A DNA stretch of 64,000 nt. Origin: Escherichia phage S127 BCL3. This document shows, piece by piece, positions 3,573 through 6,131 of the stretch. The stretch lies in sequence record OQ626344, one strand, 5' to 3'. Within the stretch, counting starts at the first letter, position 1. Every line of letters begins with the position of its first letter. The notes under the pieces are model-generated. The model was not told where the DNA came from, searched no databases, and was given only the letters and a program-made list of their open reading frames with translations. The position numbers and the translations under genes were made by a program.

Positions 3573-3712
3573 CACACAAGCCTGCTTTGCAGGTTTAGCT
3601 GCTCAGCTAAGGTTCTGGCGGCACCTATAACATCTTCCAACTAAATTTCCTACCAACACAGTTACTTACCCACCACACATGACTGTTTGCTTGTTTAGTG
3701 AGCAGTCATCCC

Positions 3713-3740
3713 TTGACATTCTTGCCTATCTTGATAAAAT
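3713..3740 (+). promoter_or_regulatory. sigma70-like promoter directed into non-coding DNA
   Basis: TTGACA - 16 nt - TAAAAT; no credible ORF downstream for about 2.4 kb. Confidence 0.4.
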
Positions 3741-3935
3741 TAAGTTCTTCTCTTTTCTTTTACCGAGTAATTCGGGTTTTCTGTTCTCTTCGGTTTGAAG
3801 GGGTATGGAGATACACCTGAGTGAACAGGGTGAACAACCGAACCTTTAGCTATGGCATTAGCATGGCGAAGCGGACGGGTGACGAAAGAGGGGCCGGAGG
3901 ACACCAGTCACTGCCATATAGTATATGGGTGATAA

Positions 3936-4475
3936 CCTGAAGAGTCTGAATAAGTGTTTAAGTACCAGTCAGAGGAAAAGGTGAATGGTAGCCGAAGGGG
4001 GAGGGGGGTTTCTTATATCTTTAATTTGTATACTTTATATACACTTGTAAACCAATTCAATTAGGATCTGTTTACCACACAAAGTGGATGGAGACAAATA
4101 TCACCTATTAAACTTGAATTATTTATAGAAAATACCACAACACCACTTAAGTATTTGATTTTACACACAAATCTTACAAATATCCTACCTCCATATTTAA
4201 CATACTTGTAACATATCCCATATCCTACCTGCCTGGTCAATTTACTCCCACCACATCCCCACATTTTCCCTGTCTGTACTACCCCACCCCCGCCGGGAGT
4301 CCCGTCATATCTGGCTTCCCAGCAAATATCACACCCACAAATATCATCACCTGAAGAGGGTTTCATCCCATAATACACACCTTGCCTGAAGAGCGCTTCA
4401 TACACCACCTAAATTTTTTAATTGACCCCTCCCCGCCGCCGGAGAGGTTGGCTTTTCCCACACAGGCCTGAAGAG
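3936..4475. repeat. dispersed 9-mer CCTGAAGAG, four copies (3936, 4350, 4385, 4467)
   Basis: Exact 9-mer four times in 540 bp of non-coding DNA. Confidence 0.7.
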
Positions 4476-4705
4476 TCAGCCAGAAATATCTGAACAGGTC
4501 CAGTTATACCCCGATTTTGTGCTTGTCCTACAGGAGTGCTGCCCTGTCAGGAGCCGGTAGCGACTGGAGTGCTGCCAGGCGGACGGAATGGGAATACTTC
4601 TCATTTTTATAATAATTCTCAAATATCGAGGCAGTGAGGCAAATTAATAGGCCAGGCCGTTCACACAGTGGCACAACATTTGCAATCTATCTTGTGGGAG
4701 TGAAT

Positions 4706-4739
4706 GAGAATACCTATCATTGTGAGAATGGTTATCATT
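4706..4739. repeat. tandem pair of GAGAAT-N3-TATCATT-type motifs (also at 16666 and 16802)
   Basis: GAGAATACCTATCATT and GAGAATGGTTATCATT adjacent; related copies in second intergenic region. Confidence 0.6.
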
Positions 4740-5010
4740 ACGGGCAATTTAACATAATACCCATTATGCGCACCACTGGCGATACATACAGGGATTGATA
4801 ACATGGGTTACTGTTTACGCATATAACAATTATATTTCTTACTATTTGTGTGGGATATAGTTAGCAACCAATAGATTAGATATTGACCTGCGGACTTCTG
4901 ACCGTCCAGACGTCTAAACGCCCACACAGCAAGGATTATACATACATTTCTGAATGTAAACAAGGCCGCAAAAATGCTACCATACCAGTTTGTAAATTTT
5001 TCATGCAGCA

Positions 5011-5095
5011 CTTGACAAAGAGGAGAAAAACTTGTCTGACACAATGTGACAAAATTACCACTTTTGACACTTTTACCTTTGACGCAATATGACAC
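5011..5095. repeat. iteron-like array of TGACA(C/A) half-sites
   Basis: Six TGAC(A/G)C(A) motifs at roughly 11-24 bp spacing. Confidence 0.45.
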
Positions 5096-5175
5096 AATAA
5101 CGGCTGTTACTATTCCATATCTCACTGTTTACGCATAGGCTGTTTACGCCTGAACAGTTTACACAGAGATGATAA

Positions 5176-5469
5176 GCCATGCCATTCGTTTGCATGAAAA
5201 CAATTAACAAGCTAACAATTAACAAGTTAATAATCTTTCGCTGGCTATGCCAGGTGACTAGGTCACCCCTTCGGGCGTTTCTATGACATAATATAAAAGC
5301 AGGGCAACTATTAGAAGATCTATAGTTGCCTTGCTTGTTATGTCATGATTAACTAAATACAAGGCAACTATGATCTGAGTAATAGATTGCAGAAAAACTA
5401 TCACGGGGGTGATGGTTACTGCTTTTATATTATGTCGCGACTCCGTCGCGCCATGCCATTCGTTTGCAT
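5176..5469. repeat. composite element: 20-bp direct repeats flanking 18-bp inverted repeats
   Basis: GCCATGCCATTCGTTTGCAT at 5176 and 5450; GACATAATATAAAAGCAG at 5285 inverted at 5419; internal GGCAACTAT/ATAGTTGCC dyads. Confidence 0.7.
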
Positions 5470-6082
5470 AGTTGCCTTATTGTTACAGGTAAAACAATTA
5501 CATTATTAATTATTTCTTATCTTTCTCTTAGTCATCTAATGATTCCAGTCAGTATAGTAATGTACAGTAAACATTAGACGACTAAAGATTTCTCTGTTTA
5601 TGATAACTCATCGTGATAATTTCGGACTGTTTACGAAAAATGTTGACACCTGAGCTGATTTATGTTATGCAGTTTACACGAATAATTATTTTATGCAGGT
5701 ATTGACTATTCCGTTATTCTGTGGTTGGAATAAATACTTTGCAGACTATAGAATGGCGTTCGTACGTGAATTCTGAGATCTGTCGGCTATAGTTATACTC
5801 GATTTTTCGCGTAGAACACGCTTTCGATGCTGTGTAAGTGTATGACTTATAAAGATTTTTAGTTGTTGACAAGATATTGGAGATATGCATCAGGTTAAAA
5901 TTTGTGCAATAGCTGCATTACGTGCACTTTTGGGAGAGAAAACGGGTAAAAATGGACTTGCTACCACACAATGAAAAATTATGCAATAGTTATTTTCCAT
6001 GTATATTTGTACAGTATGTGGGATTGATAGCTAGTCAATTATTCCACTTGCCAGGTAGGGCCGTTTATGGTAGGAGAAGAGC

Positions 6083-6112
6083 AGACAAAAAGAAAGGGGC
6101 CTTTAAGCCCCT
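6083..6112 (-). terminator. rho-independent terminator ending the leftward 16.2-6.1 kb block
   Basis: On minus strand hairpin GGGGC-TTAAAG-GCCCC followed by TTTCTTTTT. Confidence 0.55.
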
Positions 6113-6131
6113 TGATAATTCAGTTAAGAAA

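Follow-up and report, generated by a model that had tools for sequence, protein, structure and literature searches.

The linear genomes of phages T7 and T3 end in direct terminal repeats (DTRs) of 160 and 230 bp, respectively, and these are accompanied by flanking arrays of short repeats (SRL and SRR), the pacB site and the promoters phiOL and phiOR. In the stretch of 64,000 nucleotides of Escherichia phage S127 BCL3 analysed here (OQ626344; hereafter the window), a gap of 2,559 nt at positions 3573-6131 separates two convergent gene blocks, and we consider it highly probable that this gap forms the terminal region of a linear genome bounded by short exact DTRs, seen as the end-to-end junction of a circularly assembled sequence. 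The likeness to T7 and T3 covers the short exact DTR with fixed ends, the short-repeat arrays just outside it, a gene-less promoter reading toward the right end and a T7-type replisome. However, the phage is a 137-kb myovirus and not a 40-kb podovirus, its repeat measures 459 bp, its promoter is of the host sigma-70 type and not of the phage-polymerase type, and the gene-free arms reach ~1 kb each. Moreover, we know of no T7 counterpart of the boundary motif TGYYA|RRC (the bar marks the cut) or of the large nested inverted repeat described below. The cos site of lambda (cosQ-cosN-cosB) offers a second comparison, with a site-specific staggered cut and arrays of terminase-binding boxes on one side, which provide an analogy for the TGACAY and CAAATATC boxes of the window; in lambda the nicks are 12 nt apart and leave cohesive ends, whereas in the window the cuts are 459 nt apart and the ends are duplicated. 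A T7-type DTR terminus is a known kind of feature, which has been reported in one sentence for Vequintavirus and is poorly described in this group, and its link to the "non-coding box" of rV5 is not made in the literature found. The new descriptive points are the boundary motif, the flanking arrays, the unit formed by a promoter and G-runs, and an inverted-repeat block with AT-rich DNA, all of them with candidate roles in packaging and replication.

A search with positions 3400-6300 gave matches of 85-97% identity in 121 phage records, every one of them a Vequintavirus (rV5-like myophages of E. coli), and this conservation indicates that the gap is not junk. Several records begin or end inside the gap, which was first seen as shortened BLAST matches and was then followed by a search with 4578-5036 alone. 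The record of phage HdK5 (MK373780) has its first base at window position 4578 and its last at 5036, and its first 459 nt are identical to its last 459 nt at 100%. Since record ends fall inside the gap and the same 459 nt stand at both ends, the gap can be read as the junction of two physical genome ends, with the DTR between a right-end arm (3573-4577) and a left-end arm (5037-6131), and with both bordering gene blocks transcribed toward the genome ends. The authors of HdK5 and EdH4, who took as ends the points where most reads stop abruptly, reported "short terminal redundancies of 458 bp" (PMC6563267). At least ten GenBank records are opened at one of the two boundaries, either at 4578 (among them HdK5, Gotham, YN3, bov10K2, bov11CS3 and bov22_2) or at 5036|5037 (Pr121LW, Aya and ECP2303). 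Gotham carries an annotated repeat_region 1-459, both Gotham and YN3 have the segment at both ends, and Shigella phage CM1 holds two DTR copies in tandem, the second of which begins at 4578. The DTR is 459-462 nt long in 17 of the 17 loci having it, against a variation of more than 100 nt in its flanks. An alignment of 15 genomes, used for the conservation profile and for a codon-position test, also shows a break at the boundaries, with an identity of 0.90-0.99 inside the DTR and adjoining outside sequence that is hypervariable in both sequence and length. For the phage of the window itself, a terminal repeat at this place is predicted by homology (93-99% identity to the mapped relatives).

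The same arrangement is found in a second genus. Klebsiella phage KPP-1 (Mydovirus, Vequintavirinae) has a 514-bp DTR supported by twofold coverage and PhageTerm and termed T7-type by its authors (PMC9862379). As in the window, this DTR is situated in a gap poor in open reading frames (ORFs), here of ~1.8 kb, between convergent blocks, and both of its boundaries are homologous to those of the window in the same register: the left one reads GGTGCTA|GACGGACAG in KPP-1 and GTGCTGCCA|GGCGGACGG in the window, the right one CTTGACAAGGAGAGAGAATTGTGTT|TAGCAA in KPP-1 and CTTGACAAAGAGGAGAAAAACTTGTC|TGACAC in the window. The two phages, members of one subfamily, also share AATGAGAAT boxes within the DTR, a TTGACA 18-19 nt before the right boundary (17 nt at the inferred boundary of L007, an IMG/VR contig of a divergent clade), a perfect inverted repeat ~250-310 nt past the right boundary and a C-rich arm whose paired G-run precedes the left boundary by ~135-150 nt; AAATATCA and CCTGAAG-like motifs are present in the left arm of KPP-1 as in the C-rich arm of the window. 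In contrast, the left arm of KPP-1 is only ~335 nt long and, by eye, is devoid of the promoter and non-coding unit of 3713-4014. The papers on HdK5/EdH4 (PMC6563267) and KPP-1 (PMC9862379) give the repeat length or coordinates only, leaving the gap, the boundary motif and the flanking elements undescribed. The initial annotation, made from the window alone, had offered a replication origin, a terminal or packaging region and an injection-control region as possible readings of the gap and had asked for a comparison with related genomes. This comparison located the genome ends inside the gap, and the terminal or packaging reading is the one that agrees with the published end-mapping of relatives in two genera.

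Both boundaries of the window fit TGYYA|RRC when read 5' to 3' on the strand running into the repeat, the two copies being in inverted orientation. The motif occurs exactly twice in the gap, once per strand, and each time its cut position falls on a boundary. In the gap of KPP-1, TGCTA|GAC is the sole match on the + strand and predicts base 3017, the published DTR start, and TGCTA|AAC, one of two matches on the - strand, predicts base 3530, the published DTR end. A conserved TTGACA is present at 5012-5017, 19 nt before the right boundary of the window, and such a TTGACA at 17-19 nt from the boundary recurs in three lineages. These data suggest that TGYYA|RRC could be a cleavage motif at the DTR boundaries. 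In the L007 clade the motif is approximate (left site TATTA|GGC) and the right boundary is likely ...TTGACAAAAAGAGCGTAATTTGT|TAGGCATAC, which would give a DTR of ~668 bp.

On this basis, the formation of the ends could proceed as follows. Replication would yield concatemers with one DTR copy per junction, in which a packaging nuclease would nick the top strand at TGCCA|GGC (4577|4578) and, at the inverted TGTCA|GAC (5036|5037), the bottom strand. Cuts placed in this way would expose 5' overhangs of 459 nt, which a polymerase could fill in, so that each daughter end would acquire a complete DTR, in line with the T7/Watson-type scheme. Packaging proteins would be likely to recognise the box arrays outside the DTR (ACWGGAGTGCTGCC and CAAATATC on the left, TGACAY on the right). 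The promoter and non-coding unit (3713-4014), together with the inverted-repeat block and AT-rich DNA (5285-5800), might serve replication initiation and/or end processing, this being the least supported step.

Several points weigh against this proposal. The ends of the window's own phage are drawn from homology alone, and the polarity of the nicks, the roles of the boxes and the binding of terminase are inferred. TGYYA|RRC was derived after the boundaries had been seen and in that form is not found in the L007 and L009 lineages; as homology links the boundaries of one phage to those of another, independent evidence comes solely from the left-right symmetry inside each genome. Some record openings may have been copied from earlier records rather than mapped independently; different submitters use two different boundaries. 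The duplicated unit of CM1 measures 523 bp (DTR plus 64 nt of right flank) and not 459 bp, which reflects either a different right boundary in this phage or an assembly error. Finally, the 2013 rV5 paper calls the genome circularly permuted, bov10K2 and bov11CS3 were announced as 'circular permutated' by PhageTerm at 135,960 bp (PMC8407724), and a 2026 paper on BpE1AUH reports headful packaging from PhageTerm. If packaging were of this headful (pac) type, the genome would be circularly permuted, the gap would be at most a pac site and the shared record ends would be conventions or artefacts. We regard this as very unlikely, since the exact 459-nt repeats at the HdK5 ends far exceed assembler k-mers, the laboratory of HdK5 and EdH4 sets ends by abrupt read stops (PMC6563267) and the twofold coverage of KPP-1 is limited to 514 bp (PMC9862379). 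In addition, two distinct, base-precise cut positions recur across submitters, and the boundaries are kept to the base between genera. The permutation statement on rV5, in the text consulted, cites no end-mapping experiment, and the bov records were later re-issued with a start at 4578. Cohesive ends of the cos type (~7-20 nt) were rejected, given cut positions 459 nt apart and a repeat that is duplex at both ends of deposited genomes. The injection-stop region of T5 is described with repeats, inverted repeats and DnaA boxes near the genome end, and the gap likewise has repeats and inverted repeats near a genome end and, in one related clade, DnaA boxes. A T5-like control of first-step transfer, the injection-control reading of the initial annotation, is nevertheless a poor fit and scarcely plausible: the terminal repeat is 459 bp long and carries no genes, compared with ~10 kb with pre-early genes in T5, no pre-early block stands between the end and the region, and the adjacent genes are transcribed toward the ends. 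It is equally improbable that the gap consists of decayed genes, mobile-element debris or neutral spacer. Parts of it are indeed hypervariable with indels, a homing endonuclease of the HNH family is inserted in the divergent clade, and genomes differ in whether and where they have a 44-nt hairpin element. However, large blocks exceed the neighbouring genes in conservation, genera that differ in sequence still share the architecture, the ORFs scanned gave no sign of a remnant protein and the gap has no similarity to 5,426 E. coli genomes. A terminal region with a short exact DTR is thus the reading that we retain; its features are collected in Table 1.

Table 1. Features of the terminal region and of the replication module, in window coordinates (a dot in the strand column stands for no strand)
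Feature	Position	Strand	Basis or remark
459-bp DTR, at both ends of virion DNA by homology; one collapsed copy in the window	4578..5036	.	homology to mapped relatives
Left boundary motif TGCCA|GGC; left end begins at 4578	4573..4580	+	record starts and KPP-1 homology
Right boundary motif TGTCA|GAC; right end 5036	5034..5041	-	record ends and KPP-1 homology
Hypervariable left DTR flank with one or two ACWGGAGTGCTGCC copies (4530-4543, 4563-4576)	4520..4577	+	15-genome alignment
Hypervariable right flank with TGACAY boxes at 5037, 5047, 5065, 5080, 5090	5037..5160	+	boxes all on + strand
Two direct copies of GAGAATnnnTATCATT (core AATGAGAAT) inside the DTR	4703..4739	+	repeat_region in navn, nomo, pangalan, Alma
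Short hairpin CCTGC-TTT-GCAGG directly 3' of the last rightward gene	3581..3593	+	terminator scan flagged - strand
Strong sigma-70 promoter: TTGACA, 16-nt spacer, TGnTAAAAT (extended -10)	3713..3740	+	11/12 consensus positions
Ultra-conserved non-coding unit, ~265 nt, purine-rich, ending in G5AG6 (3997-4008) then TTTCTT	3747..4014	+	alignment
Hairpin CCGAG-TAA-TTCGG then U-rich tract, ~16-38 nt past the predicted start	3763..3785	+	terminator scan
C-rich, G-poor arm, GC skew -0.40	4020..4520	+	composition profile
Two perfect copies of GCCATGCCATTCGTTTGCAT (5176-5195, 5450-5469)	5176..5469	+	repeat search
Nested inverted-repeat block with 18-nt perfect arms (5285-5302/5419-5436)	5285..5485	.	
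AT-rich DNA, candidate unwinding region	5451..5800	.	GC profile
Intrinsic terminator of the leftward gene block	6094..6113	-	8-bp stem and T-run
Family-A DNA polymerase	25379-28156		
Primase-helicase, gp4-like	28215-30293		

The gap contains 11 families of direct repeats and 8 inverted pairs, and its recurring 8-mers show a 10- to 140-fold enrichment over the remaining 61 kb of the window, in agreement with its earlier description as repeat-dense. The motif CTGTTTAC occurs five times in the gap and once outside, CAAATATC five times in the gap and twice outside, and AAGGCAACTAT, with at most one mismatch, gives 7 matches where 1.6 are expected, 4 of the 7 being within 180 nt. Extra copies of the inverted-repeat boxes elsewhere in the window amounted to short matches at chance level, the AAGGCAACTAT-like sites inspected being placed in unremarkable sequence without palindromic arrangement. 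In the left flank of the DTR the identity falls to 0.43 at 4520-4559, with indels and inserts that differ between genomes, and the final 15 nt are conserved. The right flank, with an identity of 0.41-0.62 (5040-5160), carries three to five TGACAY boxes depending on the genome, followed by CTGTTTACGC boxes at 5125 and 5140 and by CAGTTTAC at 5155; its length ranges from 112 to 219 nt or more in the genomes whose sequence anchors were cleanly found. A GACAYAATA core, like that of the TGACAY boxes, is also present in the inverted-repeat arms of three of four lineages, and the arm of L009 (GCTAATAATAAGCCA) only resembles it. Inside the DTR, the second GAGAATnnnTATCATT copy agrees by eye with the Fur-box consensus of E. 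coli in 14 of 19 positions, and the core AATGAGAAT is also found twice in L009 and twice in the KPP-1 DTR, where one copy (AATGAGAATCATT) closely resembles a Fur box. Just upstream of the GAGAATnnnTATCATT copies, which could be bound by Fur or by a phage protein, there is a weak site resembling a leftward promoter (4782-4754). GATC is rare in 3573-6131, with 4 sites against ~12.6 expected from the window-wide density.

The initial annotation had found no credible ORF in these ~2.5 kb and had placed them between convergent transcription units, and both statements hold. The final rightward gene (3357-3572, with ATG at 3357 and TGA at 3570-3572) belongs to PHROG 12108 and the end gene of the leftward block (6132-6551) to PHROG 12277. 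In the 15 aligned genomes these flanking genes have 9/6/32 and 10/10/57 variable sites by codon position, that is, an excess at third positions, and such a bias is absent in all 15 of the 15 gap ORFs of at least 40 amino acids, most of which are interrupted in relatives. Four scanned gap ORFs, the longest one included, had no match in Pfam or PHROGs. A protein-coding gap was ruled out on these three grounds: no codon-position signal, broken ORFs and no family match. Most depositors of related genomes left the gap unannotated. In NHEP1, Mangalyan and MiataMamis it is filled with 12-18 'hypothetical proteins' of 30-60 amino acids, some with annotated ribosome-binding sites, and none of these mini-ORFs is backed by the comparative test; they look like over-calling. 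Among known RNA families, Rfam 15 at permissive thresholds gave no match with E <= 1 in 3000-6800, its matches otherwise being only of the generic hairpin type and far below gathering scores, and ARAGORN found no tRNA or tmRNA in the gap. The terminator of the leftward block (6113-6094) is also annotated in HdK5, Gotham and Alma and corresponds to t164 of the rV5 supplement. At the other border, the short hairpin behind the last rightward gene is a weak terminator candidate in a variable stretch (identity 0.60 at 3560-3599). The matching gap of rV5 measures 2,604 bp between genes 163 and 164 (rV5 supplement), and in the 2013 rV5 paper it is drawn as a grey "non-coding" box without ORFs and without interpretation.

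The right-end arm contains the only strong promoter of the gap, which has a predicted start at ~3747 and no ORF behind it. It is 96-97% conserved among the 15 genomes, is kept as TTGCAA-N17-TGcTATAAT in a ~76% identical clade, and is not among the promoter entries that a targeted term search found in the rV5 supplement. The unit downstream has an identity of 0.96-1.00, above that of the flanking genes, and shows no conserved ORF in the alignments and no Rfam match. Exact scans of viral and metagenome contigs with its conserved cores found homologues only in Vequintavirus and in the ~76% identical clade, and in IMG/VR only 3 loci have the flanking protein. Promoter, hairpin with U-tract and terminal G-run pair are kept between both clades, the latter as G5AG6 in the window and G5-6 UA G5 in the other clade. 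The first hairpin, a candidate terminator or attenuator, reads CCAGAA-TACGC-TTCTGG followed by a U-tract in the divergent clade, and of the 4 pair columns in common, 3 have substitutions in both partners (C-G to A-U, C-G to G-C and G-C to A-U). The unit as a whole folds no better than shuffled sequence (z = -1.26 for the single sequence 3747-4020), and RNAalifold on 5 and 17 distinct sequences, effectively two clades, gave a weak consensus; structure is claimed for the first hairpin only, not for the entire unit. Searches of the window for antisense targets of the unit gave only short matches at chance level. The lengths of the G-runs differ among relatives (G5AG6, G6AG6, G5AG5 and G5AUG6).

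In the C-rich arm that follows, CAAATATC boxes are located at 4095, 4177, 4323 and 4338, and CCTGAAGAG motifs, all on the + strand, at 3936, 4350, 4385 and 4467. Three of the latter are able to form small hairpins with AGNG loops (e.g., UGAAG-AGCG-CUUCA), and KPP-1 has CCTGAAGTGTCAGCC at the equivalent place. The motif G4+ N1-2 G4+ occurs three times in the 64 kb, each time in the gap (3997-4008 on the + strand, 4282-4291 and 4426-4434 on the - strand), and a G-run pair on the - strand ~135-150 nt left of the DTR is common to the window, KPP-1 and the L007 clade. In L007, a 256-amino-acid HNH homing endonuclease is encoded at 6716-7486 (+) in the gene-free arm, between the non-coding unit and the C-rich segment.

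Beyond the right flank, the two GCCATGCCATTCGTTTGCAT copies bracket a variable AACAATTAACAAG tandem (5199-5234), the 44-nt hairpin element (5234-5277) and the inverted-repeat block. This block is strongly structured (fold z = -8.5 as RNA and -8.7 as DNA), has an identity of 0.93-1.00, and contains AAGGCAACTAT boxes at 5301 (+), 5322 (-), 5361 (+) and 5468 (-) as well as hairpins at 5396-5417 and 5437-5449. At the corresponding position, KPP-1, L007 and L009 each carry a perfect inverted repeat of a different sequence, with arms of 15-21 nt and a spacer of 82-164 nt. The block of the window is a candidate protein-binding platform, cruciform or origin core. Its reading as a miniature inverted-repeat transposable element (5285-5436) was rejected: the arms lack an adjacent target-site duplication, and each lineage carries an inverted repeat of its own at that position. 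The 44-nt hairpin-rich element (...CCAGGTGACTAGGTCACCCCTTCGGGCG...), which has one copy in the window, is present in CM1, RudolfGeigy and I29 and absent in others, and is found inverted at 7319-7362 of the IMG/VR genome L008, close to the last rightward gene, and could represent a small mobile module. The block adjoins DNA with 31% GC in the 300 nt from 5451, the second lowest value in the 64 kb (percentile 0.001-0.002). The lowest GC of the whole window is found outside the gap at ~16650-17100 (29.7% in 300 nt at 16801). Clustered boxes are found beside an AT-rich element, an anatomy that is necessary for an origin and not sufficient. In the gap there is no perfect DnaA box and a single relaxed one (TTTTACACA at 4159), and DnaA and IHF sites are not enriched. 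In the DTR-equivalent of L007 (reverse-complement 2381-2573), three perfect DnaA boxes (TTATCCACA) and one near-perfect box are present in one orientation.

Two further functions could be attached to the gap, of which the origin is compatible with genome termini. The promoter at 3713 might produce an RNA of ~40 nt and/or ~265 nt acting in trans on host or phage targets or in packaging, the gap being then a non-coding RNA locus or regulatory hub. We entertain this tentatively: the extended -10 promoter is near consensus and conserved in two clades, the DNA behind it is 96-100% identical without an ORF, the first hairpin keeps its pairing through three double substitutions, and pairing is possible between the pyrimidine-rich 5' end of the unit and its G-rich 3' end. 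The poor global fold, the weak consensus structure from two clades only, the lack of an Rfam family and the absence from the KPP-1 gap by eye argue against it, and the strict sequence conservation would fit binding of a protein to the DNA as well. The pRNA of phi29, a packaging RNA encoded next to the genome end under a strong early promoter in a phage whose ends are protein-primed and without DTR, is comparable in that the window also has a small candidate non-coding RNA gene under a strong promoter near a genome terminus. The window nevertheless shows no sequence or structure similarity to this RNA (Rfam negative), and it has a DTR. That the main function of the gap is a replication origin, at 5176-5485 as an initiator-binding array with the AT-rich DNA of 5451-5800 as its unwinding element or through priming by a G-rich transcript from 3713, appears possible though rather unlikely. 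T7-type replisomes use transcript-primed origins, and the window encodes a family-A polymerase and a gp4-like primase-helicase; the structured and conserved block with four AAGGCAACTAT boxes next to the AT-rich DNA, the equivalent inverted repeats in all four lineages despite differing sequence and the DnaA boxes of the L007 clade would agree with such a role. In contrast, no good DnaA box and no initiator gene were identified in the window, and inverted repeats near DTRs equally suit end processing or transcription control. GC skew was rejected as origin evidence because it is confounded by convergent transcription, which fully explains its switch.

The human mitochondrial element CSB2 consists of G5AG7 and a T-tract, and eleven guanines cause almost no extra termination by the mitochondrial enzyme (PMC5027508, PMC3488243). 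Like CSB2 and the RNA II primer of ColE1, the window has, within non-coding DNA, G5AG6 followed by TTTCTT at a distance of ~250 nt behind a strong promoter, and its replisome is of the T7/mitochondrial family, a formal resemblance only; it differs in that transcription would be carried out by the multi-subunit host RNA polymerase. It is conceivable, if quite unlikely, that 3713-4014 is a new RNA element linked to replication or packaging, in which a stable R-loop or hybrid G-quadruplex formed by the nascent RNA at the G-run pair stops transcription and offers the phage polymerase a 3' end to extend; if true, bacterial viruses would have an equivalent of the priming of the mitochondrial heavy strand. 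On this reading, the opposite-strand paired G-runs near the DTR may have a related role in end processing.

Vequintavirus isolates are widespread, and phage cocktails directed at E. coli O157 and other pathogens make use of them. The ends of these genomes have been reported inconsistently (circularly permuted, headful or DTR), and more than 100 GenBank records are opened at arbitrary points. The boundaries described here could provide a common and biologically meaningful start coordinate for Vequintavirus genomes, a rule to find the ends of new isolates (TGYYA|RRC on opposite strands, with TTGACA 17-19 nt before the right end) and defined targets for genome engineering and rebooting, which need true ends. 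The unit of promoter and G-runs, the box arrays beside the DTR and the inverted-repeat block with its AT-rich neighbour are the obvious candidates for packaging recognition and replication initiation in the subfamily.

Rightward of the gap, the T7-type replication module, which also includes a Dda-like helicase, comes after ~20 kb of small leftward genes. No terminase gene was identified among the window ORFs scanned; the large terminase of rV5 is listed as Terminase_6 and spliced (rV5 supplement). Some related records deserve mention for their own sake. In CM1 the 523-bp tandem duplication occupies 1425-2406, and in phage I29 a perfect palindromic junction at 1561-1620 is followed by a restarted copy of window 4219-4794; both anomalies look like assembly artefacts caused by the terminal repeat, or in CM1 alternatively a longer repeat. 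The ends of the 241Ecol014PP record (~4893 and ~4987) were discarded as uninformative, being an overlapping arbitrary opening. The current versions of the bov10K2/bov11CS3/bov22_2 set (MT884008.2, MT884009.2 and MT884010.2) are ~135,883 bp long and start exactly at the left DTR boundary. Finally, 19 of the 121 matched records carry the label "Campylobacter phage" (MG0656xx; C2, A116, A141 and others), with Campylobacter jejuni as the stated host and ~89-95% identity to the Vequintavirus region; either the organism or host labels of these records look wrong, or the stocks were contaminated.

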